A DNA stretch of 64,000 nucleotides. It comes from a virus (Duplodnaviria; Heunggongvirae; Uroviricota; Caudoviricetes). Every line of letters starts with the position of its first letter. Position 1 is the first letter of the stretch. Of this stretch, positions 10,964 through 41,472 are shown in pieces. The DNA is taken from the IMG/VR virus record IMGVR_UViG_3300015214_000028, positions 1 to 64,000 of that record; one strand, written 5' to 3'. The notes under the pieces were generated by a model. It saw only the letters and a list, made by a program, of their open reading frames with translations. It ran no database searches and was not told the DNA's origin. The position numbers and the translations under genes were made by a program.

Positions 10964-11308
10964 ATGAGCAAAGAAAAAGTGGCAGCGTATTCAATCGAGC
11001 AAACTTCGGAACTGGTCGAGGCTTACAAAGCCGACCCGACTCAAGAGACTGTTGCGATTTTTGCGGAACGGTTCGGAAAATCTGCCCGGTCGGTTATCGC
11101 GAAGCTTACTCGGGAAGGCGTGTATATCAAAAAGACTTACACCAGCAAAACGGGTGAACCTGTTATCAAAAAGGATGACATTGCCGACAAGATCGGTGCG
11201 CTTGTCGGGCTGGCGGATTCCGAAGCTGATTCGCTTGCGAAAGCTAATAAATCCGCGCTGAAGAAAATTTATGCACGGCTTACCGGATCGGGCGCGGATT
11301 CCGAATAA
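10964..11308 (+). CDS. small HTH-motif protein (A2-like); member of a paralogous family
   Basis: Motif ARSVIAKLTREGVYIKK is shared with 15894..16238, 37469..37828 and the three repeats in 40736..41472. Confidence 0.5.
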   Translation: MSKEKVAAYSIEQTSELVEAYKADPTQETVAIFAERFGKSARSVIAKLTREGVYIKKTYTSKTGEPVIKKDDIADKIGALVGLADSEADSLAKANKSALKKIYARLTGSGADSE

Positions 11309-11364
11309 CCTGTAGCATACCGGGGTGCATCCAGCACCCCGGTTAATCAAAAGGTAACGCTAAA

Positions 11365-11673
11365 ATGTCTCGAAAATACCAAAGCTTTAGATATCGAACA
11401 GCTATGTGCAGCATTGCTCAGGCTAATGGTGCGGTAGCTTGTCGCAAGGGTTTGACCGTAGCAATCGTTCCATGCCTTGAAGGCGCTTTCAATCCGAAGT
11501 TCTATAAGGTAGCAGTTGCTCACTGTAGTGACTCGGATGAATTTGACTATAGTCGCGGCGTGATTATTGCAGAAAATCGGCTTTGTTGCGACAACTTTAT
11601 CACGTTGCAAAACCCTTTTCCCGGTTCACCGCCACAACGCGCAGCGGAGTATTTTGCCTCGATGCTAGTCTAG
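11365..11673 (+). CDS. hypothetical protein (102 aa)
   Basis: Track ORF with RBS AAAGG; followed by a terminator. Confidence 0.4.
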   Translation: MSRKYQSFRYRTAMCSIAQANGAVACRKGLTVAIVPCLEGAFNPKFYKVAVAHCSDSDEFDYSRGVIIAENRLCCDNFITLQNPFPGSPPQRAAEYFASMLV

Positions 11674-11684
11674 GTTCCTAGCGT

Positions 11685-11716
11685 AAGCCCCAATTCTAAT
11701 TGGGGCTTTTCTTTTG
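11685..11716 (+). terminator. rho-independent terminator
   Basis: AAGCCCCAA ttctaa TTGGGGCTT followed by TTCTTTTG. Confidence 0.7.
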
Positions 11717-11751
11717 CCCGGTACTGTAAATGCTTCGCATTCGCCAGATGA

Positions 11752-11983
11752 AAATGATTCTCATTTGCTCGCGCCGATTTTACACCTGGTTGGCCAGCAC
11801 GTCAAGCCCGGGTACTCTAAACGAGAATGATTCTCATTCAGGCGCCGATTTTACACTACACTAGAACACTTGTCAAGCCGTGTTACAATTAACACGGGGT
11901 GTAGCATATGGGGCAAACTGGTACGCTTTTTGCTTTCGTTAAACGCGAACGATTCTCATTCTCAAACGCGAACGATTCTCATT
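11752..11983. repeat. four operator-like palindromes (A)AATGATTCTCATT(T/C), two followed by GCGCCGATTTTACAC
   Basis: Copies at about 11752-11766, 11825-11839, 11948-11960 and 11971-11983. Confidence 0.75.
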
Positions 11984-12020
11984 CTCATTTCTTTTTGCCA
12001 AAATACCCGAAGGGTATTTT

Positions 12021-12140
12021 GCGCCCGCGAGAGTGAGAAATCAACGCCAAATTTTCCGTGTCGCCGCGCCCGCGCGAGTGAGAAATCAATGACAAAATTC
12101 CGCGCCCGCGCGAGTGCGAGATCAACGTGAAATTTTACAT
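12021..12140. repeat. three tandem ~38-bp direct repeats (GCGCCCGCG(C)GAGTG(A/C)GA(A/G)ATCAA(C/T)G..AAATTTT), iteron-like
   Basis: Read directly. The track ORFs 11870..12130 and 12127..12318 are most likely non-coding repeat DNA. Confidence 0.75.
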
Positions 12141-12184
12141 GCTAGAGTGCAAAGTCAAGTCGAGTTTTCCCCCGCTAAAGCAAC

Positions 12185-12610
12185 ATAACCCGGGGTGCAG
12201 CGATCATAGCAATCATAGCAATCCTAGCAATCGCGGCAACCACAGCAACCACAGCAAGCCTCACACTAAAGCAGCCCTAGCAACTTCCCGTAGCCCTCAC
12301 AGTAGCCCAAGCCGCTAAAGACTTTACGCCCCGGGCTACTCTATGAGCCCTCTAAGCCCGCTAAAACCTCTGAGCCCCGGGTTAAAAAATAGCCCGGGGT
12401 GTAGCGATTGATTCAATGCCCCAAATCTAAACAGTAACCCGGGGCTCAGCGATTTTAGTAAGCTAAAAAATATCCCAGACTAAAGAAGTAGCCCGGGGCT
12501 CAACGATTTTAGCAAGCTAAATGCACTCAAAGAACTAAAAAGTAACCCGGGGTTCAGCAATTGAACCGGCTTCAGCAATTGAACCGATCTTTGAGCCCCG
12601 GGTTACTTTG
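12185..12610. repeat. cluster of at least eight copies, in both orientations, of a 17-25-bp element GTAACCCGGGG(C/T)(T/G)(C/T)AGC(G/A)ATT, plus tandem 9-mers (TAGCAATC / CAACCACAG) at 12196-12262
   Basis: Copies near 12187, 12337, 12369, 12390, 12434, 12488, 12542 and 12591. Confidence 0.85.
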
Positions 12611-12960
12611 TGAAGGTGACTAAAAATTATTTTTGGCCAAAAAATTGAATTTTAAATTGTATTACGCAGGCGTTTTTTGCCGACTTTATATGGTAATCAA
12701 TAAATTAATTGATTTAAAACTCAGTAATTGAAAAAGAACTCTTAGCTTAAAAAAGGGGGGGATAAATTGTCCAGTAACAACAACGGAGCAAAAAATTTCA
12801 GCGCTAAATTTCAAAAAATAACGAAAATTTTTTTAAAAATAGTCGAAAAAAGCTGAAAAAACTTTGAAATTTGAATTAATTAAACTAAAAAGGCAGTAGT
12901 CTAATTTGAAATAAGTTAATTTAAAAAAGAGACTAGTCTGAAAAATACCCCCTGTCTAAT
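12611..12960. other. extremely AT-rich non-coding tract (candidate DNA-unwinding element or spacer) with no ORF above 60 aa
   Basis: Long A/T runs, e.g. aaaaattatttttggccaaaaaattgaattttaaattg. Confidence 0.6.
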
Positions 12961-12961
12961 A

Positions 12962-13090
12962 AGTAACCCGGGGCTCAAAATCTGAAAAAATGCTAAAAAT
13001 TTATTAATTCTTTTGTAATCTAATTAACCCGGGGCTCAGAGGTTGAAAAGGTTTTAATAGCTAAAGAAGTAACCCGGGGCTCAGCAATTC
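12962..13090. repeat. three more copies of the GTAACCCGGGGCTCA element
   Basis: Near 12962, 13026 and 13069. Confidence 0.85.
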
Positions 13091-13272
13091 AATAAACTAA
13101 GAAATCCCCTAAAATTGGGAGACCGGGGTTACAGTGGTTAGCTTATTAGTTGTATACCGTTTAATACGTTTAGTAATGAAAAAACGCGTAGTATACGTCA
13201 AAAGAAAAAGTCAAGCAAATTTTTAGTTATTACATTTTAAATATGTATAGGTTCCCCCAAGGTTAGATTGCC

Positions 13273-13390
13273 AGGAAAATCGCCTTAATATCGCAAGAAG
13301 AATTTTTTGCGCGGGCTCTTTAATAGCACCGGCGGGGGGACCCCCCGGCTATTAGCCCTCGCAAAATTCTTTTGCTCTAGCGATTTTCCT
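13273..13390. repeat. ~115-bp imperfect palindrome (AGGAAAATCGC ... GCGATTTTCCT) centred on a G7/C6 hairpin CCGGCGGGGGGACCCCCCGGC
   Basis: Read directly. Lies between convergent gene blocks. Confidence 0.75.
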
Positions 13391-13460
13391 TAATTCTGTC
13401 GAATTTCGTCAATCTATCCTTTATTATACCACATTTTTTTTTTAATTTCAACTCGATTTT

Positions 13461-14042
13461 TCATTCTGGCTTAAAATCCCAGTCTGTAGGGCTTAAAATC
13501 ATTTTAGGATGCCTGATATCCGGATGATAGATCCACATCTCTAGTAACATGTATCTCAACATCTTAGGAAGTTTATCGAAGAGTGTTCCAGTCTTTTCTA
13601 GTGAACCGTACTTTTTAGGGTCTGGCATTTGTGATCTATATTGTTCTAGCTTGTCTTTAGGCGGGATTGGGTATGGCATTAGTAGCCAAGTTAGCGACTC
13701 TGTTAGGAAAGTTGCTAGCTGGTTATTTTTTACCCAATCGTTATATTTGAAGTCGTAGTAGCTCATAAATAGCGGAACACCAGAAGAAAGTTCTGGTTTG
13801 TAAGTCATAGCAGGCTTTAGTAATTTTGAGCGTGGAATTACTGCGACTTGTTCTACTAGACTGATTAGGTTTTCTGGTGCTTTAGAATACCACTCTTCTG
13901 CGTTTGGGGTGTCTAGTGGTACGGTTTTTACTACCGATTCTAGCCAAGGAAAGAATTTTGGATCTTCCTTTACTTTCTTTTGTAGATCTTTATCTAGCTC
14001 TAGGAGCTTTATGTTGCCTTGTACGAAATATTCAATTTTCAT
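13461..14042 (-). CDS. hypothetical protein (193 aa)
   Basis: Track ORF. Confidence 0.5.
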   Translation of the reverse strand: MKIEYFVQGNIKLLELDKDLQKKVKEDPKFFPWLESVVKTVPLDTPNAEEWYSKAPENLISLVEQVAVIPRSKLLKPAMTYKPELSSGVPLFMSYYDFKYNDWVKNNQLATFLTESLTWLLMPYPIPPKDKLEQYRSQMPDPKKYGSLEKTGTLFDKLPKMLRYMLLEMWIYHPDIRHPKMILSPTDWDFKPE

Positions 14043-14074
14043 TTTAGTTCCTTAGGGGTGTAGCTGGTGTAGCG

Positions 14075-14181
14075 AGTAACCCGGGGTGTAGCGGGTTTAG
14101 CGATTGCAGTGGTTGCTTGAGTGTAACCCGGGGCTCAGCAATAGTCTGGGGTGTAGCAAGTGCTACACCCCGGGTTACAGT
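14075..14181. repeat. three more CCCGGGG-element copies; the last sits in a perfect hairpin GGGGTGTAGC aagt GCTACACCCC
   Basis: Read directly; upstream of the minus-strand gene 13461..14042. Confidence 0.8.
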
Positions 14182-14828
14182 TAGCAATTAACAATTTCCC
14201 ACCCAAAGTTATCGTCAGTGTAGCCTCTAGGATTTGATACTACTCTAGTGTTATTTATAGTGTAATCACACTTAAAGTGGGTGTGTCCATGAATCCAAAG
14301 CTTTGGCTCATGGTCTAGATAGGGGCTATACGGATTAAAGATATCAGTATAGAAAGCTTTGCTTAGAGGAGCTGAACGATACTCTGGTGCTACAGAAAGA
14401 ATACTAGGAGCATGATGAGTGATAAACACGTCAGCATTAGAAGTGTTTAGAAACTCTAGATCCTTTTGGAATTCTTCATTCCATTTTAGCTTTTTAATGT
14501 ACCTAAAATCATTCATGCCTTCTTTAGCTACTAGATAGGCCATAGGGTTACTAAGGTCTGTCCAAAGAGTAGCACAAGCAAATCTTACTCCTTTAAACTC
14601 AAAGATTTCTCTATTCTTTATTAGTGGGTGGTACTCATCATACTTACGACCATAGTACTCATGATTACCAGCTACATAAAGAATTGGCCCATCAAACTCT
14701 AGCGGGAGCCAAGGATTGCTTAGTGAGCAAATATCCCCCGCGAGCACGCAAATATCCGCCGGAGGCGGAAGCTTGCGCATTGGGGTAAATTCGGTGTGCA
14801 GATCTGATGCGTATGTAATTGTTAGCAT
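14181..14828 (-). CDS. calcineurin-like metallophosphoesterase (Ser/Thr-phosphatase-like)
   Basis: Motifs DLHTEF, LAGDICS, VAGNHEYYG, FITHHAP, IHGHTHF. Confidence 0.65.
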   Translation of the reverse strand: MLTITYASDLHTEFTPMRKLPPPADICVLAGDICSLSNPWLPLEFDGPILYVAGNHEYYGRKYDEYHPLIKNREIFEFKGVRFACATLWTDLSNPMAYLVAKEGMNDFRYIKKLKWNEEFQKDLEFLNTSNADVFITHHAPSILSVAPEYRSAPLSKAFYTDIFNPYSPYLDHEPKLWIHGHTHFKCDYTINNTRVVSNPRGYTDDNFGWEIVNC

Positions 14829-15047
14829 TTTTCAGATCCAAAACTTATTACATTCATTTTAATTTCTCCAAGGTTATAATATATTATAGCCGTTTAAAAA
14901 GAAAAAGGCAAGCTGTAAATAGCTTGCCTTTAGTTGGGTTAAAGAGGTTTTCAGTTTAGGGTGTCGTCATCATCATCATCTTCATACTCACCCTCAAAAA
15001 TTTCTTCCTCTATATTTTGCAAACACCCGTATATCTCACATATAGGA

Positions 15048-15233
15048 TTAGAGCATAGACAGATCATAGTCGCACTTCCTAATAATAAAGGATTCGTCAT
15101 CTAGAATTTCAAGTTCTAGTATGTCCCTTTCTTTCCACCCTAGCTGCTCAATAATCTCATCTGGTATTGGAAGAATTAATTCTCCGCTAGAATCAACCTC
15201 TAGTTCTACGTAAATTTCATTCATAAGCATCAT
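15048..15233 (-). CDS. hypothetical small acidic protein (61 aa)
   Basis: Track ORF. Confidence 0.35.
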   Translation of the reverse strand: MMLMNEIYVELEVDSSGELILPIPDEIIEQLGWKERDILELEILDDESFIIRKCDYDLSML

Positions 15234-15714
15234 CCGTTCTAAACGCTAATTCTGGCATACCCACAGCGGTTGGCCCACTCGGACGGTACCCGTCAAAATA
15301 GGGCTTGATTTTCCACCCGAATCTAAAATAAAGCCTAAACTTAGAGGTTTCTAGAATAATAAAGAAAAAGTCAAATGCCTTACCGTTGCTATAAAGAATG
15401 AAAGGGCCCTTTTCTTTTCTAGAAATATTGTCTAAATCTTTAGTTGCTAGTTTGAACCTTGCACCATATGCTTTATTTCTCCATAACCACCAAACCCTGG
15501 CAGCATAGCTTCCGTATTTCTCTTGAATTTTTAGAAGCTGTTTTTCTCCTCCAAAATCAGTTAAACTAGTATCTGGAGTACCCATCCAAGTAAAGGGTGG
15601 AAGTAGCTTACCGTTTTTTACTCTTAGTGCTGCTACAGGTGCTAGGGCTAGCGATACTGCTTGAGCAGTTAAGCTAGCGGCATTAACTACTAGTGCTTTT
15701 AGAAATGGTTTCAA
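15217..15714 (-). CDS. hypothetical protein (165 aa)
   Basis: Track ORF. Confidence 0.4.
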   Translation of the reverse strand: MKPFLKALVVNAASLTAQAVSLALAPVAALRVKNGKLLPPFTWMGTPDTSLTDFGGEKQLLKIQEKYGSYAARVWWLWRNKAYGARFKLATKDLDNISRKEKGPFILYSNGKAFDFFFIILETSKFRLYFRFGWKIKPYFDGYRPSGPTAVGMPELAFRTDDAYE

Positions 15715-15901
15715 TTTTTACCTCCAACTCTTCTATCTTTTTTAGACATACCTCAATTGCTTGAGCAGCATTATTAGCATGCTCTGCTAGTGCTTGAATA
15801 GCTTTTCCATGGTCTAGAATACACTCACTTTGTTGACTAGTAAGTTTGGAAAAGGCGTCTAGTACACTGTGTACTTCTTCTTTTAGTTTTTTGTTAAACA
15901 T
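15683..15901 (-). CDS. hypothetical coiled-coil protein (72 aa)
   Basis: Track ORF. Confidence 0.35.
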   Translation of the reverse strand: MFNKKLKEEVHSVLDAFSKLTSQQSECILDHGKAIQALAEHANNAAQAIEVCLKKIEELEVKIETISKSTSS

Positions 15902-16238
15902 TAACTACCTTAAGGGACTCAATAACTTCAGGATCAATGGCTTTTAGCAAGTTCCTTAAAGTTTGTTTTGGTGCTTTCTCTAACCCTTCTAGATCTGCTG
16001 AAATCAGGGCTAGAGAGTTAGCGATCAGTTCTACGTATTCATCTTTACTGGTGGGGATTTCTCCAGTTTTAGTAGTATACTTTGGTTTTTTGTAAATTCC
16101 TTCCCTAGTAAGTTTTGCAGCTACTTGTCTAATGGTTCTGTCCCATTTTTTAGCAAGTAGTTCCACAGTTCTAGGGTAGGGATTCTCTGTGTAAAGCTTT
16201 ATATAGTCTAGTGTTTCTTCGTCTGAATATCGTTGCAT
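15894..16238 (-). CDS. HTH-motif family protein (paralogue of 10964..11308)
   Basis: VAAKLTREGIYKKPKYTTKTGE closely matches VIAKLTREGVYIKKTYTSKTGE. Confidence 0.5.
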   Translation of the reverse strand: MQRYSDEETLDYIKLYTENPYPRTVELLAKKWDRTIRQVAAKLTREGIYKKPKYTTKTGEIPTSKDEYVELIANSLALISADLEGLEKAPKQTLRNLLKAIDPEVIESLKVVNV

Positions 16239-16262
16239 AGTTTATACCTCCACCGAATATAC

Positions 16263-16291
16263 ATTATACTACAAACAGAAAATAAAAACAA
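16263..16291 (-). promoter_or_regulatory. sigma70-like promoter (minus strand; TTGTTT-N17-TATAAT) for the 15894..16238 operon
   Basis: Reverse complement reads TTGACCTTGTTTttattttctgtttgtagTATAATgt. Confidence 0.45.
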
Positions 16292-16359
16292 GGTCAAAAT
16301 TCGAAGTGCACTGCGCCAAAACCAAAATTATGCAGTATATTACACGCATAAATGTCGGC

Positions 16360-16388
16360 TTGCTTTGTTCATTGATAATTGCTATAAT
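16360..16388 (+). promoter_or_regulatory. sigma70 consensus-like promoter (TTGCTT-N17-TATAAT)
   Basis: Read directly; divergent from the minus-strand promoter. Confidence 0.6.
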
Positions 16389-16440
16389 ATTGAATGTTCG
16401 GTGGGGAAGGCCCGCTGAAAACTAAGATAAGGAATTACTA

Positions 16441-16962
16441 ATGAATAAACTTAAAAAGTTTCGTCAAGACTACGAGGCTGCCGTTAGCAAAATTTGGGAG
16501 GTGATTGGGGACGAAAAGCATCCTCTTTATAGCATTACTAAATGGCTTCTTCAAACGGATGCTAATGCAGAGCAGCTTTTTCCAGAACTAGAGTTTGATG
16601 CTTTTAGTTCCCCCGAAAACTTTGTAGCTATGCTAGACCTTCTAGAAAGGGGGCCTGCCGTGGTTTCTGTTAATGGAGAACTACGAATCATTTTCTGTGG
16701 TATCCAAGATATGGAGTATTTCGAAAGGAATAAAGAAATTATTGCACTAACGGAATCGGAAATTCTTTCTGGGGCTGAGTTTGCTATTAGTGTTGTTGAT
16801 ATTTCTCTAGACGAGTTTGGTGCTGAGTACGATCGTAGATTTTTAGCTCAAATTGATGATTGGTTTGATAACGACCTTCAATTTAGCCTCATGTCTAAGG
16901 AAGAATTAGTAGAGTATTATTCTAATCGGTTTAACCTTTTTGATAGGAGTAAATACGAATGA
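16441..16962 (+). CDS. hypothetical protein (173 aa)
   Basis: Track ORF downstream of the promoter. Confidence 0.5.
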   Translation: MNKLKKFRQDYEAAVSKIWEVIGDEKHPLYSITKWLLQTDANAEQLFPELEFDAFSSPENFVAMLDLLERGPAVVSVNGELRIIFCGIQDMEYFERNKEIIALTESEILSGAEFAISVVDISLDEFGAEYDRRFLAQIDDWFDNDLQFSLMSKEELVEYYSNRFNLFDRSKYE

Positions 16963-17252
16963 GTGGGGGTGCGTTTGATTATGTCCAGCAACGAATTCAT
17001 GACGTTGCTAGTGAGCTTGAGACTCTTACTGACGAGATTCGTCTGGGTAAACCGGGGTTTGAACATCTCTCCATCGAAACAATTAATAAATTTTATGAGG
17101 GGGTCAAGGCTCTTTGGGTTGCCGAAGCCTATATTCATAGGATCGACTGGTTGGTGTGTGCTGATGATGGGGAGCAAGACTTCCATAAATTTTTGAAAGA
17201 CGACCTGGCTAACGTGGAGTTCTGCTGGGAACGTCTAAAAGGAAAGAAATGA
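16959..17252 (+). CDS. hypothetical protein (97 aa)
   Basis: Track ORF; start overlaps the upstream stop by 4 nt. Confidence 0.45.
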   Translation: MSGGAFDYVQQRIHDVASELETLTDEIRLGKPGFEHLSIETINKFYEGVKALWVAEAYIHRIDWLVCADDGEQDFHKFLKDDLANVEFCWERLKGKK

Positions 17253-17560
17253 CTCTAGGCGAACTTATTGAGTATTTGGAAGGGTGTCCAGATCAGAACT
17301 ATGTATGCCCACTAGGGTTGGGGCAGCCACACAGTTGGGGAGGTGCATATACTGACTTGTCCTTCACCCCTACTGAAAACATTACTGTAGCAGAAATGTT
17401 GAATAATGCGCACTCTGCTTTAGATAAAGAGTTTGAAGGGGGCACGTATTTTATGGATGAATTTACAAAAGTTAATATGGATCGTTATGGCGAGTACAGA
17501 AACGGCCCTGTAACTAAAATTCTTTTAGACTATATGACGGGGAAGCATGACAAAAGATGA
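17249..17560 (+). CDS. hypothetical protein (103 aa)
   Basis: Track ORF; start overlaps the upstream stop by 4 nt. Confidence 0.45.
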   Translation: MTLGELIEYLEGCPDQNYVCPLGLGQPHSWGGAYTDLSFTPTENITVAEMLNNAHSALDKEFEGGTYFMDEFTKVNMDRYGEYRNGPVTKILLDYMTGKHDKR

Positions 17561-17640
17561 TTGGCTAGGTATTCTAGCCATTTGTTTTATTTTGATTCAT
17601 TTCGTGGTTCCTATTTTGTTTTATTTTGGGGTATTTTAAT

Positions 17641-18872: not shown

Positions 18873-18880
18873 TCCTTAGC

Positions 18881-18909
18881 TTGATTAAGCAAGCCGCGCT
18901 TGCTATAAT
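18881..18909 (+). promoter_or_regulatory. sigma70 promoter TTGATT-N17-TATAAT; the spacer contains the palindrome GCAAGCCGCGCTTGC
   Basis: Read directly. Confidence 0.6.
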
Positions 18910-18933
18910 ATATCTTTACGGTGAGAGACACAA

Positions 18934-22967: not shown

Positions 22968-22968
22968 T

Positions 22969-33747: not shown

Positions 33748-33833
33748 AGATATTAAAAAGTGCGCAGAGTATCAGCACGTAGTCAAAACTACTCTAAATT
33801 TCATTTTGCAACTTGGAAAACCGGAGTACCTGA

Positions 33834-34034
33834 ATGATATTAAACATCAAACGAGTAAAATACGATGCAGCTAATGAAGAGCATCGAAATGCTTATTTTA
33901 ATTTTCTAAATACTGGAAGATGGTGTAAACATTTCGAAGTGGAGTACCCTTATGTGGAACTTCCAGCTCAGCTAGCGCAGCAAACACTGCGTTTTTATCG
34001 TGATCGGGAGACTCGTCTAGTATCCACTGCTTAG
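33834..34034 (+). CDS. hypothetical protein (66 aa)
   Basis: Track ORF. Confidence 0.4.
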   Translation: MILNIKRVKYDAANEEHRNAYFNFLNTGRWCKHFEVEYPYVELPAQLAQQTLRFYRDRETRLVSTA

Positions 34035-34407: not shown

Positions 34408-34741
34408 CTCTTGGGACGCCCTATCAAAATCTTTACCTTTAATGACCCCTCCGCCTGGTTTCGATATTCTAGAAACAAAAGATGGCTTTGCATACCTAAA
34501 GCACCTACGCCTAAGTTTTGAGATTTCTAAGTCCGATATTAAAGTAGTGACTAAAGGCAATAAAGTCTATGTAAATGTACATCGAGGGGGAGCCCCGAAC
34601 CGCAGTGTATTCTATTCTGTCTCTCTTTTCAGTAATGAGAAGTTTAAGAAAGCTGCATTTATCGAAGACATTGGCCTACTTCTACTATACGTAACCTATT
34701 CAGACGCGTCTGAAACAGTAACAGAACATCCCATTCTGTGA
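34382..34741 (+). CDS. small heat-shock protein (Hsp20/alpha-crystallin-like)
   Basis: FDILETKDGFAYLKHLRLSFEISKSDIKVVTKGNKVYVNVHRGG; ATG at 34382 (the track's TTG is at 34373). Confidence 0.5.
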   Translation: MYSTQQSNNSWDALSKSLPLMTPPPGFDILETKDGFAYLKHLRLSFEISKSDIKVVTKGNKVYVNVHRGGAPNRSVFYSVSLFSNEKFKKAAFIEDIGLLLLYVTYSDASETVTEHPIL

Positions 34742-34748
34742 CCCTACA

Positions 34749-34772
34749 AGGCCCCTTAATGGGGCCTTTTTC
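34749..34772 (+). terminator. rho-independent terminator
   Basis: AGGCCCC-ttaat-GGGGCCT followed by TTTTT. Confidence 0.7.
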
Positions 34773-34922
34773 CTATGTACGAACTAAATAAACAGTATCA
34801 CTATCGCCCTTTCGGTCTCGTTACCTATCAAGGAATTGATGGTAATTTTCATGTGTTTCGAACAAATGATTTTGCTCTAAGATTGAGTACTTTTAGTAAG
34901 CAGAAACTCCGGCTACATATCA

Positions 34923-35177
34923 ATGTTTGAGCTTTTCCTAGCGTTTCTAGCATGTGCCGTGGCCACAGCTTTTATAGCTATTTTTTGGCTATATATTCCA
35001 ATTATTGAAAAAGTAAGAGTTCTAAATAGAAAAGATTCGATTTTTATAGGCACCCCCTTACTAGCTTGCGTTGTATTCTTTGTTCTAACTTTAGTTATGG
35101 CACCAATGATGTTTGGTGTAATGCTTAACGAACCTCATAGAAAGATTTTCATTCAAGAATTGAGTACTAAACATTGA
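34923..35177 (+). CDS. membrane protein (84 aa, two TM helices)
   Basis: Track ORF. Confidence 0.45.
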   Translation: MFELFLAFLACAVATAFIAIFWLYIPIIEKVRVLNRKDSIFIGTPLLACVVFFVLTLVMAPMMFGVMLNEPHRKIFIQELSTKH

Positions 35178-36064
35178 AAAACCAAGAACAAATTCAAGTA
35201 AAAGTTTTAGCGGACTCTAAAACTAAAGACGGTATTCGTCTTACCACACTTAGGCTTATCTATCCAAGATTTATTCATGCTGAGCTAAAAACTCATCGCA
35301 TGTTTAGCACTAACTCCTCTAGTTCTAGAGCAATTCCTGTTAAGTCTATGATTGAATATACTCTAGAAAACCCTGCCAAGCTTTGCCACTTCGGGCGCAA
35401 TCAGCCCGGTATGCAAGCTGAGACAGAACTTGATAACGAAACTATTCAAGCTGTAGAAGCCCATTGGCACCGTGGAAGTAAACTGGCTGCTGAAGTAGCA
35501 GAAGTTCTAAACAGACTGGGACTACACAAGCAAGGTACTAATAGAGTACTAGAGCCATTTCAACATATGCATACTATTGTGTCCGCTACAGAGTTTGAAA
35601 ACTTCTTTAATCTTCGCAGACACAAAGACGCTCAGCCGGAAATCAAAATTCTGGCCGACAAAATGTGGGAAGCTATAGAAAATAGCGTACCACAAATCTT
35701 ATATCCTGGACAATGGCACTTACCAGGTATTGTACAAAAGGCTAATTCGACGTATATTTCCCCAGATGGCGCCGAACTGACCTTAGAACAGGCTCGTATG
35801 GTTTCCGCGAGCCTATGTGCCCAAGTCTCCTACAGAAAGGAAGACTATTCGCTAGAAAAAGCTGAAAAGATTTTTAATCAGTTAATTTATAGCGAGCCTA
35901 TGCATGCAAGCCCTGTAGAGCATCAGGCTACTCCCATTCCAACCGGCTACCCCTTTACTAAGGGAGTTACCCATATGGATTTTAAAGGTAACTACTGGAG
36001 TGGTAATTTCAGAGGGTGGATTCAATTCCGCCAGTTACTTCAGCAGAAATGGGACGAAAATTAA
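35174..36064 (+). CDS. thyX: flavin-dependent thymidylate synthase
   Basis: ThyX signature LKTHRMFSTNSSSSRAIP (RHR...S...SxR). Confidence 0.75.
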   Translation: MKNQEQIQVKVLADSKTKDGIRLTTLRLIYPRFIHAELKTHRMFSTNSSSSRAIPVKSMIEYTLENPAKLCHFGRNQPGMQAETELDNETIQAVEAHWHRGSKLAAEVAEVLNRLGLHKQGTNRVLEPFQHMHTIVSATEFENFFNLRRHKDAQPEIKILADKMWEAIENSVPQILYPGQWHLPGIVQKANSTYISPDGAELTLEQARMVSASLCAQVSYRKEDYSLEKAEKIFNQLIYSEPMHASPVEHQATPIPTGYPFTKGVTHMDFKGNYWSGNFRGWIQFRQLLQQKWDEN

Positions 36065-36750
36065 AAACGGAAAACCCGTCAGTCAACAAACACGTTACTT
36101 TAGAGCCTAAAACTCCAGCTCAAGCGAGATTTATCTCTGCTATAGAGGGACACCCTATCTCAATGGGTATTGGCCCTGCGGGAACTGGAAAGACCTATGT
36201 GTCTTCCAGTCTTGCAGCCCGGGGTTTAGTAAATAAACAATATGACAAAATTGTTTTGTCTAGAGCTAATGTCCCCACTGGTAGGTCTTTAGGACATTTC
36301 CCAGGTACTGTGGAGGATAAGCTTACTCCTTGGCTAACTCCTGCGTTAGATATTTTAAGATATCAGATGGGAGAGAGCATGTTTAAATACTGCATGGCTA
36401 AAAAGGTTATCCAACTACAGCCTTTAGAGACTATTAGAGGTAGGTCATTTGAATCTACCTTTATGATTGTTGACGAATCTCAAAATTTAAATAGGGACGA
36501 AATCACTTCTATTACCACAAGACTAGGAGAGTATTCTAAGTTAGTTCTTTTAGGAGACCCCTTTCAAACCGATATTAAGGGAGAGAACGGTCTGGAGTGG
36601 TTTGAGACTTTAGTAACTAAATATAAACTAAATATTCCAGTTACTAGGTTTGGGTTAGAAGACGTAGTTAGAAGTAAAATTGTTAAACAAATTCTAGTAG
36701 CTCTTTACGCAGAGCACACTAGAAAATCTAAGCTTGAGGCTGCCGGCTGA
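36016..36750 (+). CDS. phoH: PhoH-like ATPase
   Basis: Walker A GPAGTGKTYV; DESQN motif; overlaps thyX (the alternative ATG at 36049 gives a shorter overlap). Confidence 0.7.
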   Translation: MDSIPPVTSAEMGRKLKTENPSVNKHVTLEPKTPAQARFISAIEGHPISMGIGPAGTGKTYVSSSLAARGLVNKQYDKIVLSRANVPTGRSLGHFPGTVEDKLTPWLTPALDILRYQMGESMFKYCMAKKVIQLQPLETIRGRSFESTFMIVDESQNLNRDEITSITTRLGEYSKLVLLGDPFQTDIKGENGLEWFETLVTKYKLNIPVTRFGLEDVVRSKIVKQILVALYAEHTRKSKLEAAG

Positions 36751-36762
36751 TCCCTGTATAAT
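36734..36762 (+). promoter_or_regulatory. sigma70 promoter TTGAGG-N17-TATAAT
   Basis: Read directly. The track ORF 36734 starts on the -35 TTG; the real start is the ATG at 36788. Confidence 0.55.
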
Positions 36763-36787
36763 ATCTATATTGGCTAGGGAGAAAACA

Positions 36788-37045
36788 ATGAAATTCAAAT
36801 ACACAAAAGCAAATGGGGAAGTTTCGGAGCGTTCTACGATCCTGCTTCGCCAACCGGAACCTAATTATATGATGCTAGATATTAGCGAGTATAGTGAGGA
36901 AGAGCAATTGGAGCTTCGTACTAAATACAACGATCTTCAGGAACAAATTCAGGCTATGACAGCTGAGTTCTATCCAGAGATTGTAAAACTTTATGAGACT
37001 CGTCTCCGGTGTTTTAAGCGGGAGCGAATGAGTGAAGTTAAGTGA
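36788..37045 (+). CDS. hypothetical protein (85 aa)
   Basis: RBS GGGAGA precedes the ATG at 36788. Confidence 0.45.
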   Translation: MKFKYTKANGEVSERSTILLRQPEPNYMMLDISEYSEEEQLELRTKYNDLQEQIQAMTAEFYPEIVKLYETRLRCFKRERMSEVK

Positions 37046-37229
37046 GCTGGATCAAAAAGTTCTAGAATCCGTAGTAGATATAGCAATGAAATATATCCAG
37101 TCAGAAAAAACTGGAGAACTAAAATTGTCTACTGCTCTCACAATTTGCTCTGGGTACTTATCTTTCTATAACCTAAATATGGAGTATGAGGGGCGGCTGA
37201 ATAAAAAGCTTAGCTCCTCATATCACTAA
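37032..37229 (+). CDS. hypothetical protein (65 aa)
   Basis: Track ORF. Confidence 0.35.
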   Translation: MKLSELDQKVLESVVDIAMKYIQSEKTGELKLSTALTICSGYLSFYNLNMEYEGRLNKKLSSSYH

Positions 37230-37230
37230 T

Positions 37231-37416
37231 ATGGATGAAAAGGCACGACTAGCAGAAGTATGCAGGCAAGCACTTGAATCTATGAAACACCAGGACCCAG
37301 ATACAAATGTAAAAATCAATGAAAATCTTCTAATGTATATTAGTGGGGAACTAGTTACTTATTACGTGCGTATGGTGGAAGCTGGGCTAATTAAAACAAA
37401 AAACACAAAACATTAA
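37231..37416 (+). CDS. hypothetical protein (61 aa)
   Basis: Track ORF. Confidence 0.35.
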   Translation: MDEKARLAEVCRQALESMKHQDPDTNVKINENLLMYISGELVTYYVRMVEAGLIKTKNTKH

Positions 37417-37417
37417 C

Positions 37418-37446
37418 TTGAATTTTTCTAGTTAGTCTAGTATAAT
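37418..37446 (+). promoter_or_regulatory. sigma70 promoter TTGAAT-N17-TATAAT
   Basis: Read directly. Confidence 0.6.
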
Positions 37447-37468
37447 ATAATCTTTAAGGAAATTAAAT

Positions 37469-37828
37469 ATGGCATGGGACGACGATAAAAAAGCTAAAGC
37501 AGTTGAACTCTACGAACAAGCAGGGCCTACCCCTGAGAATTCGATGGAAATTGTTAAAGAAGTAGCCGAGGAGCTTGGCGAAACTGTTAACGGTGTTCGT
37601 ATGATTCTTTCTAAGGCGGGGGTCTACGTTAAAGTAGAAGGTGGTGCTAAAAAGAGCAGCACTAAACCTGCTTCAGATAAAGCACCTCGGGTATCTAAGG
37701 CTGATTCACTTCAGGCTCTTACTGATGTTATCGAATCTTCAGGCGTGGAACCTGATCTAGAAATTATCGGTAAACTTACTGGTAAACAGGCTGTTTACTT
37801 TACTGAGCTTCTTAAAAAGTTTGTCTAA
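37469..37828 (+). CDS. HTH-motif family protein
   Basis: ETVNGVRMILSKAGVYVK matches the xRSVIAKLTREGVYIK family motif. Confidence 0.45.
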   Translation: MAWDDDKKAKAVELYEQAGPTPENSMEIVKEVAEELGETVNGVRMILSKAGVYVKVEGGAKKSSTKPASDKAPRVSKADSLQALTDVIESSGVEPDLEIIGKLTGKQAVYFTELLKKFV

Positions 37829-37838
37829 TTAATAGGGT

Positions 37839-38438
37839 GTGAATATGCCTCGCAAAGGTGCTAGTGAAAAACTAACGGACACTAATCTTCAAAAAGTCAC
37901 TGAACTATTGGGGGCAAAATCACCTATTACTAAAAAGCAAGCCTGTGAAATTCTAGGTATCGCCTATAATACTAGCCGGCTTGCTACACTTCTTGAATCA
38001 TATAAAGAACGTAAAGAACGCACTGCTCGTAAAAAGGCAGAGAAACGCTACACTCCTCCAACTGAAGATGAAATTCGAACTATTGTTCGAGATTATTTGA
38101 TTGACGGAGATAGCGTTAGCGTAATTGCTGAAAGAATTTATCGTTCTAGCGATTTTGTTAATCGAATTCTGGAACGCGTAGGAGTTCCCAAACGTACCCC
38201 AGGATTTAACTATTTTAATCCTGAACTGATTCCTGACGCAGCAGTTCGTGAAACTTTTTCCGCTAATGAGCGTGCTTGGTCTGCTAGGTATAACACTACC
38301 GTTAAGGTAATCAATGAGCGTGAAAATCAAAAAGGTGTGTATCTAGTATGGGTTGAAGGCGAAGCCGGACAATTTTACGCTTTTCAGCCCTTTGAAGAGC
38401 TTGGTTCCCTAGAACATCTAAAACAATACGGAATTTAA
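37839..38438 (+). CDS. putative DNA-binding protein (HTH; 199 aa)
   Basis: ITKKQACEILGIAYNTSRLATLLESY. Confidence 0.4.
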   Translation: MNMPRKGASEKLTDTNLQKVTELLGAKSPITKKQACEILGIAYNTSRLATLLESYKERKERTARKKAEKRYTPPTEDEIRTIVRDYLIDGDSVSVIAERIYRSSDFVNRILERVGVPKRTPGFNYFNPELIPDAAVRETFSANERAWSARYNTTVKVINERENQKGVYLVWVEGEAGQFYAFQPFEELGSLEHLKQYGI

Positions 38439-38441
38439 ATA

Positions 38442-38732
38442 ATGGAATTCAATTCCTTTAAAGCAAAAATGAACGAAGCAGGTGATGCTCTAGTCAACTA
38501 TATTTCGCCTGTTTCCGGTAAACAAAAATATCATGTTTGTACTCTAGACCTTAAGAATTGCAAGTATATTAAGGATAAACTAGATCAGCGTAAGTTTTCT
38601 GAACCTCAGCAAGGTTGGGTACGTGCTTTCTGTTGGGATCTAGATGACTTCAAAAATATTGATGTTGCTAGTGTAACATCCGTGGTGCCACTTAATAAGA
38701 TGGTATCTAATGCTGTAGACTCTTATGTATGA
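38442..38732 (+). CDS. hypothetical protein (96 aa)
   Basis: Track ORF. Confidence 0.4.
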   Translation: MEFNSFKAKMNEAGDALVNYISPVSGKQKYHVCTLDLKNCKYIKDKLDQRKFSEPQQGWVRAFCWDLDDFKNIDVASVTSVVPLNKMVSNAVDSYV

Positions 38733-39021
38733 GTGGTTCATTAGCGAAAATGAACGCGGAGAGCGGCTTTACCTAACTATTGACTCTTTTCGAGACGTAG
38801 AGTACGTACATTTTCGCAAATACTTTCAAGATTTTGAGGGTGAGTACAAACCCACGAAAGAGGGGATTTCATTCCCTCTTTCTATAGTAGCAACTCTACG
38901 TCTCTTTCTAGCACTGTCAGAAATTGTATCTGAAGCTGAAAAAGAGTTGCTATCCGACTCTCTAAAAGAAATTTTAAATGACGCTAAAACATATCGAAGG
39001 TCTACTGAAGTCAGCGAGTGA
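38725..39021 (+). CDS. hypothetical protein (98 aa)
   Basis: Track ORF. Confidence 0.4.
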   Translation: MYEWFISENERGERLYLTIDSFRDVEYVHFRKYFQDFEGEYKPTKEGISFPLSIVATLRLFLALSEIVSEAEKELLSDSLKEILNDAKTYRRSTEVSE

Positions 39022-39943
39022 GGCTTATTACGCTGGAGATCCGTTTCTAACGGATGAACAATTCGACGCTCTAGCAGCTTCAGTAAACTTTAGTGATGTT
39101 GGTAGTTCCGTTAAAGGTCTTAAGGCTAAACATACATATCGTATGTACAGTCTTAAAAAATACTATCCCGGGGAAGGTAAGCCTCCCCTTACTGAGTACA
39201 CTAAAGCTAAGATTACAACTCCTAAGCTTGATGGTGCCGCAATTTCCCTTCTATATAAAGAAGGAAAATTTGTACAAGCTCTCACGAGGGGCGACGGCTT
39301 TGAGGGGCAAGTTATTACTGCCAAACTTGCCTGCTCAACTCTCATTCCTCTGGAAATCTCTTATAAAAAAGAAATTCAGATTACGGGAGAAATTGTAGCC
39401 CCTAAAGATATTGCTAATGCTAGAAATTACGCTGCAGGTGCACTAGGGCTCAACAGTATTGAAGAATTTCTATGCCGAGACCTATATTTTGTAGCCTATG
39501 GTGCTAACATGGTGGATAAGCCAAATTTCTACAGAGATACATTGGCTTGGCTAGAAAGTCTTGGGTTTAAAACAGTTGCTGATTCTGATTTGTGCGACAA
39601 ATTTCCACAAGACGGAGTTGTTACTCGGATTGATTCCGAAAAGGATTTCAATGAATATGGGTTTACTAGTAAGCACCCTAGTGGAGCTTTTGCTACAAAG
39701 TCTAGAAATGCTGAGGTTCGTAGCATTTTACGAGAAGTTAAATGGCAAACAGGACGTAGTGGTAAAGTAACTCCAGTAGCCTTGTTTGATCCAGTTATTA
39801 TTGATGGTGCAACTATTTCACGAGCTACACTTAATAACCCGGGGTTTATCGAGGCTTTAAATCTAGATCTAGGGGATTTTGTGTATATCGAGCGAGCAGG
39901 CGATATTATTCCCGCTGTTGTTCGTAGTGAAAAACCAACTTGA
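38978..39943 (+). CDS. NAD-dependent DNA ligase, N-terminal subunit (Ia + adenylation + OB domains)
   Basis: YYAGDPFLTDEQFDAL (domain Ia), TPKLDGAAISL (KxDG adenylation lysine), OB-fold region. Ends with a stop; a promoter follows. Confidence 0.7.
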   Translation: MTLKHIEGLLKSASEAYYAGDPFLTDEQFDALAASVNFSDVGSSVKGLKAKHTYRMYSLKKYYPGEGKPPLTEYTKAKITTPKLDGAAISLLYKEGKFVQALTRGDGFEGQVITAKLACSTLIPLEISYKKEIQITGEIVAPKDIANARNYAAGALGLNSIEEFLCRDLYFVAYGANMVDKPNFYRDTLAWLESLGFKTVADSDLCDKFPQDGVVTRIDSEKDFNEYGFTSKHPSGAFATKSRNAEVRSILREVKWQTGRSGKVTPVALFDPVIIDGATISRATLNNPGFIEALNLDLGDFVYIERAGDIIPAVVRSEKPT

Positions 39944-39968
39944 TTTTCTTTACTGACCAAGGTATAAT
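39940..39968 (+). promoter_or_regulatory. sigma70 promoter TTGATT-N17-TATAAT between the two ligase halves
   Basis: Read directly. Confidence 0.6.
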
Positions 39969-39977
39969 ATATTTTCT

Positions 39978-40721
39978 ATGATCGAAATTCCATCAAATTG
40001 TCCGAGCTGCGACGGCCCACTAACAAAAGTAAACATGCAGTTATTTTGCAAAAACAAAGGGTGCCCAGCTCAAACACTGAAAAAAATTCAGCATTTCGCC
40101 AAAGTGATGGGAATTAAAGGTCTAGGAGAAAAAACTCTAGAAAAGCTCGATTTTGAGACTTATCACGATCTTTACTACTTTAGCCCTCAATATTTTACAG
40201 ATACTCTAGGGACAAAAGTAGGTACAAAGATTCTTGCAGAAATTGAAGCGTCTAAGTCTGTTCCTCTAAATCAGGGTATCGCAGCTTTCGGTATTCCTCT
40301 TATTGGTGAAACTGCTGGAAGGAAACTAGCCGAAGTATGTGCTTCTATTGAAGATATTGACTTTGAGACGTGCAAAAAAGCAGGATTAGGAGAAAAAGCT
40401 TCAAATAATCTGTTATGGTGGCTTGAGGAACAAGAATACAACGGCCTACCAATTAACTTTCTTTTTGAGAAACCTACAAAGCCCAGCTCTAATGGCTATG
40501 TAGTTTGTATCACTGGAAAACTAAATGATTATAAAAACAGAAGTGAAGCTAAAGCTTTTCTAGAAACTTTAGGCTGTACAGTAGTAGATAGTATTACCTC
40601 TAACACTAATGTTCTAATCGTAGAAGATGGGAAAACAAGCTCATCTAAATATAAACAAGCGTTAAGTCGCAATATTAAAATCTGCTCTATTAAAGAGCTT
40701 GAATCTGAAATTATTTCATAA
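39978..40721 (+). CDS. NAD-dependent DNA ligase, C-terminal subunit (Cys4 zinc finger + HhH + BRCT)
   Basis: CPSCDGPL...CKNKGC zinc finger, GIKGLGEKT HhH motifs, BRCT-like C-terminus. Confidence 0.7.
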   Translation: MIEIPSNCPSCDGPLTKVNMQLFCKNKGCPAQTLKKIQHFAKVMGIKGLGEKTLEKLDFETYHDLYYFSPQYFTDTLGTKVGTKILAEIEASKSVPLNQGIAAFGIPLIGETAGRKLAEVCASIEDIDFETCKKAGLGEKASNNLLWWLEEQEYNGLPINFLFEKPTKPSSNGYVVCITGKLNDYKNRSEAKAFLETLGCTVVDSITSNTNVLIVEDGKTSSSKYKQALSRNIKICSIKELESEIIS

Positions 40722-40735
40722 GGATAAGAAACACA

Positions 40736-41472
40736 TGACAACCCAAAAATGGACCGAAGATCGCACAGCACAACTTACTAGTCTAGTTGGCGGAGAATCT
40801 CCTGTTACTCCCGGCACTGTTGAGGCCGCTGCAGAGCAACTAGGAACAACTATCCGTTCGATTGCTTCAAAATTACGAAAACTAGGTTACGATGTTGCTA
40901 GCATGGCTAAAGATCGTGCTCCAGCTTTCTCTCAAGAAGAAGGAGAGGCTCTAGCAGAATTTGTTCAGGCTAACAGCGGTCGATTTACCTATACTGAAGT
41001 TGCCGAAAATTTTGCTGGTGGCAAATTCACTGCAAAACAAGTACAGGGTAAGGTTCTTAGTATGGAACTAACCTCGCATATTCGTCCAGCGGATAAAGTA
41101 GAGGTTCCACTCAAGTACACCGAACAAGAAGAAAACCTATTTGTTGATATGGCAAACCAGGGTCAGTATATTGAGGCAATTGCTAAGGCTCTAGGCAAAT
41201 CAATTAACTCAGCCCGGGGTAAGGCGCTTTCGCTACTTCGTGCTGGAAAGATTGACAAGATTCCGGCACAAGAAGTTTCTAACGCTAAGGTAAAGTCTGA
41301 TGCTGTAGCTGAGCTAGGAGATCTTAGCGGTATGACAGTTGCTGAGATCGCAGAGAAAACTGGCAAGACGGAACGTGGTGTTCGTACCCTGCTAACTCGT
41401 CGGGGTATTAAAGTAGCAGACTATGATGGTGCTGCTAAGCGTGAAAAAGCCGACGCAAAACAAGAAGGCTAA
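40736..41472 (+). CDS. protein with three tandem HTH-family repeats
   Basis: TIRSIASKLRKLGYDV, SINSARGKALSLLRAGKI and TERGVRTLLTRRGIKVADY. ATG at 40736 with RBS AAGGATAAG. Confidence 0.5.

Follow-up and report, generated by a model that had tools for sequence, protein, structure and literature searches.

Four small open reading frames (ORFs) scattered over a phage genome appear to carry the same helix-turn-helix (HTH) motif. Are they related to each other, and what would such a set of proteins do for the phage? We addressed these questions in a stretch of 64,000 nucleotides (the window; positions 1 to 64,000 of IMG/VR record IMGVR_UViG_3300015214_000028). The four ORFs and the identities assigned to them are as follows.

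10964..11308, plus strand: P1, 114 aa, A2 orthologue (pre-early DNA-binding protein), assigned by synteny and profile matches
15894..16238, minus strand: P2, 114 aa, second A2-like paralogue, first gene of a leftward operon
37469..37828, plus strand: P3, 119 aa, D3 orthologue, assigned by phrog_1725 and its replication-module position
40735..41472, plus strand: P4, 245 aa, D5 orthologue, assigned by phrog_323, tblastn and synteny

The contig is metagenome-derived and belongs to a diverged T5-like (Demerecviridae) phage. The T5 order is recognisable in the window, with A1, dmp, a T5-type small terminase, a nicking endonuclease, a split NAD ligase and a DnaB-primase. The following neighbouring features were located.

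8738..9217, plus strand: dmp (T5-type deoxynucleoside 5'-monophosphatase) in the pre-early block, from a precomputed Pfam hit of the window's own contig to PF26880 Phage_T5_dNMPase (L133 7775-8254, equal to window 8738-9217)
9284..10849, plus strand: A1 orthologue, 521 aa, 39.4% identity to T5 A1 over 457 aa (E 1.2e-92)
11685..11708, plus strand: terminator-like hairpin at the end of the dmp-A1-P1-ORF102 block
16260..16291, minus strand: promoter-like site TTG-N20-TATAATGTA immediately preceding P2, then a GGAGG ribosome-binding site
37418..37449, plus strand: promoter-like site of the P2-type pattern, upstream of P3
39940..39971, plus strand: promoter-like site of the P2-type pattern, upstream of ligB

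The window has 6 copies of the promoter-like pattern, where 0.03 would be expected, and the site at 39940..39971 probably serves ligB and D5 jointly. A 14-mer, AACCCGGGGYTCAG, is present in 11 copies, all confined to 7.1-14.2 kb of the window. This array flanks the dmp-A1-A2 block on both sides, and its position is that of the T5 injection-stop region. Beside the P1/P2 pair, the repeat array is dense and lineage-specific.

The homology, architecture, orthology and synteny of the four ORFs were established by the following comparisons. HMMs of the P1, P2, D3 and D5 families were each run against the 660 six-frame segments of the window. Any one of these profiles placed the same four ORFs at the top, with a clear gap before noise, indicating that the initial annotation was right to call four existing, paralogous ORFs. 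A thin profile of six T5-A2 sequences also placed P2, P3 and P1 at the top; its match to D5 (E 3) was not significant. An HMM scan of the first 74 kb of T5 picked out exactly A2, D3 and D5. In profile-profile comparison by hhalign, the P1 family matched the P2 family with a probability of 99.9% (E 1.4e-34), the D3 family with 96.9% (E 1.4e-10) and the T5 A2 family with 95.2% (E 2.5e-8, 106 columns); the D3 family matched the T5 A2 family with 96.3%. T5 A2 (4.3e-52) and T5 D3 (6.8e-50) are both members of phrog_1725. Furthermore, P1, P2, P3, T5 A2, T5 D3 and IW18 A2 aligned collinearly over their full length, including the C-terminal helical region, and the A2/D3 architecture is present: an N-terminal tri-helical HTH that leads through a basic linker into a C-terminal helical region, in about 110-145 aa. 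Judged by sequence, the four ORFs are paralogues whose relatedness goes far beyond chance. The common motif proposed for them, [ST]xR[SG][VI]xxKLxRxG[VI]xxK, held in approximate form, with copies in P2 (TIRQVAAKLTREGIYKK), P3 (TVNGVRMILSKAGVYVK) and D5 (TIRSIASKLRKLGYDV, INSARGKALSLLRAGKIDK and TERGVRTLLTRRGIKV); the literal pattern is matched by P1 alone.

P1 lies downstream of dmp and A1 on the same strand, in a pre-early block dmp-A1-A2. In the AF2 model (pLDDT 78), its N-terminal three-helix HTH comprises helices 11-23, 27-37 and 41-51, followed by a conserved linker, Y-x-[ST]-K-T-G-E, and a C-terminal three-helix region ending SLAKANKxAL. The P1-family HMM matched the whole length of T5 A2 (E 2.1e-7), phrog_1725 was weakly matched by P1 (E 8.1e-5), and the BFVD match of P1 was the A2 protein of Vibrio phage Pontus. 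A tblastn search of deposited phage records gave no match for P1, and the window's P1 and P2 have no precomputed Pfam hit; PF26822 Phage_T5_A2 is precomputed for several P1 homologues, weakly, and for D3-position proteins of relatives. In pairwise comparison, the Vibrio-phage A2 aligned slightly better with P2 than with P1. It is not fully certain that P1, rather than P2, is the functional A2.

P2 shares the architecture of P1, with GLEKAPK replacing SLAKANK, and is 37% identical to it over 94 aa. It matched phrog_1725 weakly (E 3.1e-4), gave weak tblastn matches to proteins annotated as A2 in T5-like Vibrio phages, and hit IW18 A2 by blastp of a five-protein database (E 2e-9). The HMM scan of the first 74 kb of T5 found no counterpart of P2, and no clear orthologue was present in deposited phage records. 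P2 forms a subfamily of its own (13 clusters at 90% identity) with at least 578 loci in IMG/VR, and it co-occurs with P1-type and D3-type genes on IMGVR_UViG_3300033072_000473. A combined P1/P2-type profile gave 2421 protein clusters at 50% identity. P2 is conserved in a large environmental clade of T5-like phages, with hundreds of relatives. The gene lies in neither the pre-early block nor the replication module and heads a leftward operon; genes of this second A2-like type are probably expressed early.

P3 has the two-part architecture of P1, with a Ser/Lys-rich linker and KLTGK in the C-terminus. It matched phrog_1725 with an E value of 1e-22, and tblastn returned 582 phage records, annotated as 'D3 protein' or 'DNA binding protein'. 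P3 is located in the replication module, upstream of a D2-like gene, ligA, ligB, D5 and DnaB. Many environmental relatives of P3 carry an in-frame N-terminal extension, which the window's P3 does not have.

P4 had been given a start at 40736 and three tandem copies of the motif, and both points needed correction. The true start is one base upstream: translation from the ATG at 40735 gives the database form of 245 aa (P0048, 100% identity and coverage), whereas the frame read from 40736 contains 14 stop codons. The AF2 model (pLDDT 87.5) has not three but four tandem tri-helical HTH domains (4 x 3 helices). The pLDDT was high and the pTM low, the model being a string of independent tri-helical HTH domains with the following window coordinates.

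40735-40908, plus strand: P4 domain d1
40909-41094, plus strand: P4 domain d2
41095-41280, plus strand: P4 domain d3
41281-41469, plus strand: P4 domain d4

Against the P1-family profile, d1, d3 and d4 scored 93-96%, whereas d2 reached just 23%. The d2 domain (residues about 59-120) is too degenerate for recognition by eye; the predicted fold and a marginal profile score, and these only, suggest that it is related to the other domains. P4 matched phrog_323, 'transcriptional regulator, D5-like', over residues 1-242 (E 6.3e-43). By tblastn it matched 903 records; in the best match, it is 49.8% identical (E 2e-65) to an annotated D5 from Vibrio phage VCPH. The gene lies between ligB and a DnaB-like helicase gene, as in T5.

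The shared HTH was borne out by the AF2 models and the profile matches. The common unit is predicted to be a three-helix, homeodomain-like (GcrA- or Myb-like) HTH, with a conserved S-[VI]-x-x-K-L-x-R-x-G-[VI]-Y motif in the third helix. The closest solved fold to the N-terminal domain, which agrees with the GcrA DNA-binding-domain fold, was that domain of GcrA itself (PDB 5yiu). The D5 model gave weak structural matches to the Myb, homeodomain and Cbp1 HTH repeat arrays, none of them at E <= 0.001.

It is very likely that the four ORFs are this T5-like phage's members of an ancestral T5 family of small HTH DNA-binding proteins: A2, an A2-like protein, D3 and D5. Their identities and the type of phage, neither of which the initial annotation had recognised, explain why paralogues were found. 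The family had been described as expanded in this genome. However, T5 itself has the same A2, D3 and D5 trio, so the family is ancestral, not expanded here; the sole extra member is P2, which is itself conserved in the environmental clade. The finding is largely ordinary, because three of the four proteins are A2, D3 and D5 of the T5 type and the fourth is an additional A2-like copy. Part of it is already known, as A2 and D3 are merged in PHROGs and Pfam has a Phage_T5_A2 family. We found no paper stating that A2, D3 and D5 of T5 share one HTH unit; the databases group them just implicitly.

The most likely function of the four proteins would be double-stranded DNA (dsDNA) binding, a role that we draw from the T5 record and the literature. 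In T5, A2 is essential for second-step DNA transfer, in which A1 is its partner. D5 binds DNA cooperatively and is needed for replication as well as late transcription, and its shutoff concerns early genes. The T5 record annotates D5 as DNA-binding and notes that late transcription requires D5 and that D5 is involved in shutoff. According to the Davison preprint (10.1101/866236), purified T5 A2 is a dimer that binds dsDNA and associates with A1. By analogy, P1 (A2) would be a pre-early protein, encoded beside A1 and acting with A1 on incoming phage DNA. P3 (D3) would be the product of an early gene of the replication module. P4 (D5), also from an early gene, would bind phage DNA, be needed for replication and late transcription, and take part in shutoff. 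P2 would be an additional A2-like paralogue under its own promoter-like site, of the type preceding P3 and ligB-D5. The C-terminal helical region of A2, P2 and D3 probably mediates dimerisation or partner binding.

Other explanations of the motif were weighed against dsDNA binding by a T5-type family. The initial annotation had allowed for a low-complexity match between proteins with no other relationship, and the single literal match and the low identity between P1/P2 and P3/P4 (about 22-33%) might be cited for it. This is refuted by profile-profile matches (probabilities of 93-99.9%) and by HMM scans in which these four ORFs stand clearly apart from the noise; the full-length collinear alignment, with the C-terminal helical region, and the alike AF2 folds also speak against chance, which we dismiss with near certainty. 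The proteins had also been proposed as sigma appropriators or host-takeover factors, that is, mimics of sigma region 4 that bind the beta-flap or replace region 4 and redirect host RNA polymerase. The PF08281 Sigma70_r4_2 cutoff (25.7 bits) is indeed passed by D5 domain 4 (32.5 bits) and T5 D5 (28.6 bits), and 5 of 57 A2/D3-type members match the model weakly. However, the domain 4 match spans no more than the HTH core, 27 residues that correspond to profile positions 23-49 of 54, and P1-P3 gave no hit to PF08281. Sigma regions 2 and 3 are absent, a Sigma70_r2 search of the four proteins returned none at E <= 1, and weak matches to NCBIfam sigma models fell at the HTH. None of the four resembles a known appropriator, AsiA-type similarity being found in none of Pfam, PHROGs and NCBIfam, and the T5 orthologues are annotated as dsDNA-binding, as reported for A2 (10.1101/866236). 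We consider this explanation very unlikely. A part in transcription stands insofar as T5 D5 is noted for late transcription and shutoff; a sigma factor or appropriator is without support.

The family could instead consist of GcrA-like transcription factors, in which the N-terminal HTH binds specific, possibly modified phage sites and the C-terminal region contacts sigma-70 or RNA polymerase. Such a contact would make the pre-early, early and late switches family-driven. Structurally, homeodomain, Myb and Tc3 domains score nearly as high as the GcrA domain. Every sequence match to GcrA PF07750 falls below the Pfam gathering score (26.9 bits): 6 of 57 relatives match weakly (best E 2.2e-4), the P0022 match (15.9 bits) ends at profile position 85 of 155, and the window's P1-P3 gave no hit. 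A PDB profile search reached GcrA with an E value of 0.62, and the full-length profile search did not match the C-terminal portion of GcrA, nor was similarity detected to its sigma-interacting domain. In addition, the 11-kDa and 15-kDa proteins that copurify with the polymerase have never been identified as A2 or D3. We regard GcrA-like factors as unlikely. Still less probable, in our estimate, is that P2, or P1 and P2 together, is a sequence-specific reader of phage repeat arrays such as that of AACCCGGGGYTCAG, within a GcrA-like A2/D3/D5 family. If this were true, the family would anchor host RNA polymerase or A1 at defined sites on phage DNA, and would thereby govern the second step of DNA entry as well as the temporal switch in transcription. 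It would offer a handle on two unsolved T5 problems, the restart of second-step transfer and the sorting of sigma-70 promoters into time classes.

With the four ORFs read as T5-type DNA-binding proteins, ORFs of an uncultured T5-like phage that were 'hypothetical' can be named A2, A2-like, D3 and D5, and its pre-early block is now recognisable. One HTH unit, GcrA- or homeodomain-like, underlies T5 A2, D3 and D5, and the D5 model has four of these units. P1 and P2, a natural paralogue pair by a repeat array, provide comparative material for the still unexplained second-step DNA transfer. Current understanding is not overturned by these findings.

Among known systems, Caulobacter GcrA resembles the family in the W/Y-T-x-E...LG...[VI]xxKxxRxG pattern and in its layout of DNA-binding domain, linker and C-terminal domain. 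It differs in that sequence matches stay below the family threshold and its sigma-70-binding C-terminal domain has no detected counterpart. Myb R2R3, the DUX4 double homeodomain, the Tc3 bipartite domain and Sulfolobus Cbp1 are tandem HTH arrays like D5; they show no significant sequence relationship to D5. T5 D5 has been described as binding dsDNA in general.

The closest likeness is to T5. T5 A2 (T5.006; phrog_1725; Pfam PF26822 Phage_T5_A2) shares with P1 its small size and the succession of N-terminal HTH, basic linker and C-terminal helical region; its gene likewise sits with A1 and dmp in a pre-early block, and the profile match spans the full length. T5 A2 has 135 aa vs 114 aa for P1, with ~24% identity in the alignment. 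The pre-early order A2-A1-dmp of T5 is reversed to dmp-A1-A2 in the window, and the second A2-like gene, none of which was found in the first 74 kb of T5, lies outside the pre-early block here. T5 D3 (T5.113; phrog_1725) corresponds to P3 in its E 1e-22 match, architecture and replication-module surroundings; D3 precedes the D2-like gene in the window, whereas D2 precedes D3 in T5. T5 D5 (T5.118; phrog_323) corresponds to P4 in its full-length match and in its location, flanked by ligB and the DnaB-like helicase; in both proteins, the last domain carries an HTH of the Sigma70_r4_2 type. P4 is about 44-50% identical to its counterparts in cultured T5-like phages, and the architecture is no different.

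The four ORFs lay where the initial annotation had placed them, apart from the start of the last one.

10964-11308, plus strand, P1
15894-16238, minus strand, P2
37469-37828, plus strand, P3
40735-41472, plus strand, P4

For P4, the end was correct but the start was not. The frame from 40736 has 14 stop codons, and the ATG at 40735 opens an ORF of 245 aa, which matched the public protein P0048 at 100% identity and coverage. The motif [ST]xR[SG][VI]xxKLxRxG[VI]xxK, by which the four had been grouped, fits P1 only when taken literally, and the remaining copies are approximate versions. The proposed relationship itself was confirmed by several comparisons. P1 and P2 share 37% identity over 94 residues, and the alignments of their relatives matched each other as profiles with 99.9% probability (E = 1.4e-34). 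The P1 family matched the P3 family (96.9%, E = 1.4e-10) and three separate stretches of P4. The window yields 660 six-frame segments; HMMs built from the relatives of P1, P2, P3 or P4 each put the same four ORFs at the top of them, and the next-best segment had an E-value of at least 0.19. These profile matches and HMM scans rule out a chance or low-complexity motif. The tblastn search of phages with P1 returned nothing at E <= 0.01, and P1-P3 had no match above threshold in NCBIfam or in a copy of Pfam without PF26822.

The window belongs to a metagenomic contig of 86,929 bp. No deposited phage record was matched when 8 kb of the window was searched by Megablast; the phage is too diverged to be identified at the DNA level. 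Its genes nevertheless leave no doubt that it is a T5-like phage (Demerecviridae). The minus strand encodes a protease-capsid fusion, the portal, a T5-type nicking endonuclease, and the large and small terminase subunits.

Landmarks of the window
1967-3778, minus strand, prohead protease-major capsid fusion of 603 aa, with Peptidase_S78 and Phage_capsid Pfam matches in one protein
8738-9217, plus strand, dmp (Phage_T5_dNMPase)
9284-10849, plus strand, A1, 39.4% identity to T5 A1 over 457 aa (E = 1.2e-92)
11685-11708, terminator-like hairpin closing the block of dmp, A1, P1 and a 102-aa ORF
37839-38438, plus strand, D2-like protein of 199 aa, matching phrog_3611 'helicase' (3.1e-47)
38978-39943, plus strand, adenylation/OB part of a split NAD-dependent DNA ligase
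39978-40721, plus strand, C-terminal part of the same ligase

The plus-strand block runs in the order dmp, A1, P1 and the 102-aa ORF. It is followed by 1.8 kb of repeat-dense non-coding DNA and then by a leftward operon with P2 as its first gene. Further along, rightward early genes lead into a replication module of the split ligase, P4, a DnaB-like helicase and a primase. The NAD-dependent ligase of T5 is likewise divided between two ORFs, ligA and ligB.

P4 is D5. It matched phrog_323 ('transcriptional regulator, D5-like') over its full length (6.3e-43), and tblastn gave matches in 903 phage records, the best being the annotated D5 protein of Vibrio phage VCPH (49.8% identity, E = 2e-65). 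In T5, D5 lies between ligB and the helicase, and P4 is placed exactly likewise. P3 is D3, as evidenced by its match to phrog_1725 (1e-22) and by 582 tblastn matches, whose annotations read 'D3 protein' or 'DNA binding protein'. For P1, the best assignment is A2. The gene belongs to the dmp-A1-A2 block; the P1-family profile matched the T5-type A2 alignment over 106 columns (95.2%, E = 2.5e-8), and the P1-family HMM matched T5 A2 over its full length (E = 2.1e-7). P0041, a database homologue of P1, lies in a comparable block beside the small terminase and dmp and has a weak precomputed match to Pfam PF26822 (Phage_T5_A2). In a Foldseek search of predicted viral structures with P1, the second match was the A2 protein of Vibrio phage Pontus. 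Finally, P2 is an additional A2-like paralogue. Its only tblastn matches among deposited phages were weak ones, annotated as A2 proteins of Vibrio T5-like phages. It has a subfamily of its own, in which GLEKAPK replaces the SLAKANK of the P1 family, and the P2-type gene of environmental relatives has small early genes around it and precedes a protein at the D3 position that matches PF26822.

The D2-like protein was considered as a fifth member and left out, given a weak phrog_323 match (3e-4) and E-values of at least 1.3 with the family HMMs. Its 'helicase' label looks doubtful in view of its small size and its Pfam matches, which are weak and of HTH type only. T5 has D2 before D3, whereas in the window D3 comes first.

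The AlphaFold2 model of P1 (pLDDT 78) begins with a three-helix bundle (helices 11-23, 27-37 and 41-51), and the motif corresponds to the turn and the third, recognition helix. The basic/Thr-rich tail noted behind the motif was borne out as a conserved extended segment, Y-x-[ST]-K-T-G-E-x-P-x-x-K in P1, after which the model has three short helices. P1, P2, P3, T5 A2, T5 D3 and one Vibrio-phage A2 aligned collinearly over their full length. The D5 model (P4; pLDDT 87.5, pTM 0.38) consists of four tri-helical domains arranged as beads on a string. The tandem copies described for this protein are therefore present, but in the model they number four and not three; the lower count arose because domain 2 matches the P1 profile only marginally (23%, against 93-96% for domains 1, 3 and 4). 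The whole D5 model found no PDB match in Foldseek at E <= 0.001 because its four domains are flexibly linked. With relaxed alignment settings, each half of D5 matched about 95 columns of the P1 profile (95%), the score coming mostly from the first HTH, and half against half reached only 62%. D5 might thus consist of two A2/D3-like units in tandem, a weak hypothesis.

The motif had been taken to resemble sigma-70 region 4 and GcrA, and the proteins to be candidate sigma appropriators or host-takeover factors. Domain 4 of D5 does pass the Pfam Sigma70_r4_2 threshold, but over the 27-residue HTH core alone, and the Pfam scan of the four proteins found no sigma region 2. The appropriator reading is unsupported, and we regard a sigma mimic or appropriator as highly improbable. 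A GcrA-like tethering of the polymerase is somewhat less remote, though still unlikely: the sequence links of the family to GcrA fall below threshold, and the search for its sigma-binding domain gave no match. Our literature search returned no paper tying T5 A2, D3 or D5 to GcrA.

Beyond the homology, fold, orthology and synteny of the four ORFs established here, a mechanism can be suggested by analogy with T5. Rice, Ficht, Holladay and Moyer reportedly observed cooperative binding of duplex DNA by D5 in 1979. According to the T5 record, D5 is a DNA-binding protein needed for replication and late transcription and is involved in shutoff. T5 A2 forms a dimer, binds dsDNA and associates with A1; second-step transfer needs both proteins (10.1101/866236; T5 record). 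On the strength of these properties of A2 and D5, all four ORFs would be dsDNA-binding HTH proteins. P1 may work together with A1 on the genome as it enters the cell, and P4 may bind the phage DNA and support replication and late transcription.

The pattern TTG-N20-TATAAT-RTA occurs six times in the window (0.03 expected).

14880-14911, minus strand, promoter-like site
16260-16291, minus strand, promoter-like site
18881-18912, plus strand, promoter-like site
29613-29644, plus strand, promoter-like site
37418-37449, plus strand, promoter-like site
39940-39971, plus strand, promoter-like site

Such a site precedes each of P2, P3 and ligB-D5, among other genes, and is followed in these three cases by good ribosome-binding sites; one site lies between the two ligase ORFs. 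T5 early promoters are reported to have an ATATT discriminator (PMC7472727), which the sequence after the -10 element recalls. We infer that these sites are early promoters.

The non-coding DNA beside the A2 block is rich in repeats.

11675-13460, repeat-dense non-coding region
12016-12141, three copies of a 45-nt repeat
12620-12950, AT-rich stretch

Repeats also occur at 7137-7218 and 14125-14138. The 14-mer AACCCGGGGYTCAG (also written AACCCGGGGCTCAG) is present in 11 copies (0.01 expected), all within 7.1-14.2 kb, which bracket the pre-early dmp-A1-P1 block. The palindrome-like GAACGATTCTCATTC occurs four times in the repeat region. None of the 132 loci of relatives compared contains the 14-mer, which, on this comparison, is specific to the window phage. 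In its position the region corresponds to the injection-stop region of T5, which lies where the terminal repeat ends on its inner side, and it may mark such a repeat. Near the P1 gene, GCGCCGATTTTAC occurs at 11771-11785 and 11842-11856. It is also found twice (1126-1142 and 2930-2946) near the P1-type gene of IMGVR_UViG_3300033072_000473 (L216), where an 82-nt repeat is found to either side of the A2-like gene.

The latter contig carries D3-type, P2-type and P1-type genes together and provides the closest D3-type and P1-type IMG/VR matches. P2 is not peculiar to the window genome; its relatives are encoded at no fewer than 578 IMG/VR loci. When P1/P2-type sequences were used for an exhaustive profile search, 2421 clusters (50% identity) were obtained at E <= 0.001 and 1278 at E <= 1e-10. 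Many D3-type loci of relatives (L045-L123; L047 near 3001, for example) have an in-frame upstream segment of about 20-40 aa, MGDRFYxQQL...CPG...KRKR, ahead of the MAWDD start. P3 lacks this segment, which may represent an extended N-terminus or else a tiny adjoining gene. T5-like contigs of marine origin that carry a P2-type gene (L127-L130) also encode ribosomal protein S21, HSP20, an acyl carrier protein and a PC4-like protein near the D3-ligase module.

The four ORFs amount to known core proteins of T5-like phages and one widespread paralogue without annotation. Two points may be unstated in the literature searched: a single GcrA- or homeodomain-like unit is common to A2, D3 and D5 and is present four times in the D5 model, and an environmental clade has a conserved second A2-like gene. 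Both T5 A2 (4.3e-52) and T5 D3 (6.8e-50) fall in phrog_1725; public databases therefore already handle these two as one family. Pfam also has a family Phage_T5_A2 (PF26822). The pre-early and early regions of T5 are contained in its first 74 kb; there the P1-family HMM found exactly D5, A2 and D3, with no further significant match. The family is thus ancestral and has not expanded in this genome as had been proposed: T5 has A2, D3 and D5 too, and P2 is the sole addition in the lineage.
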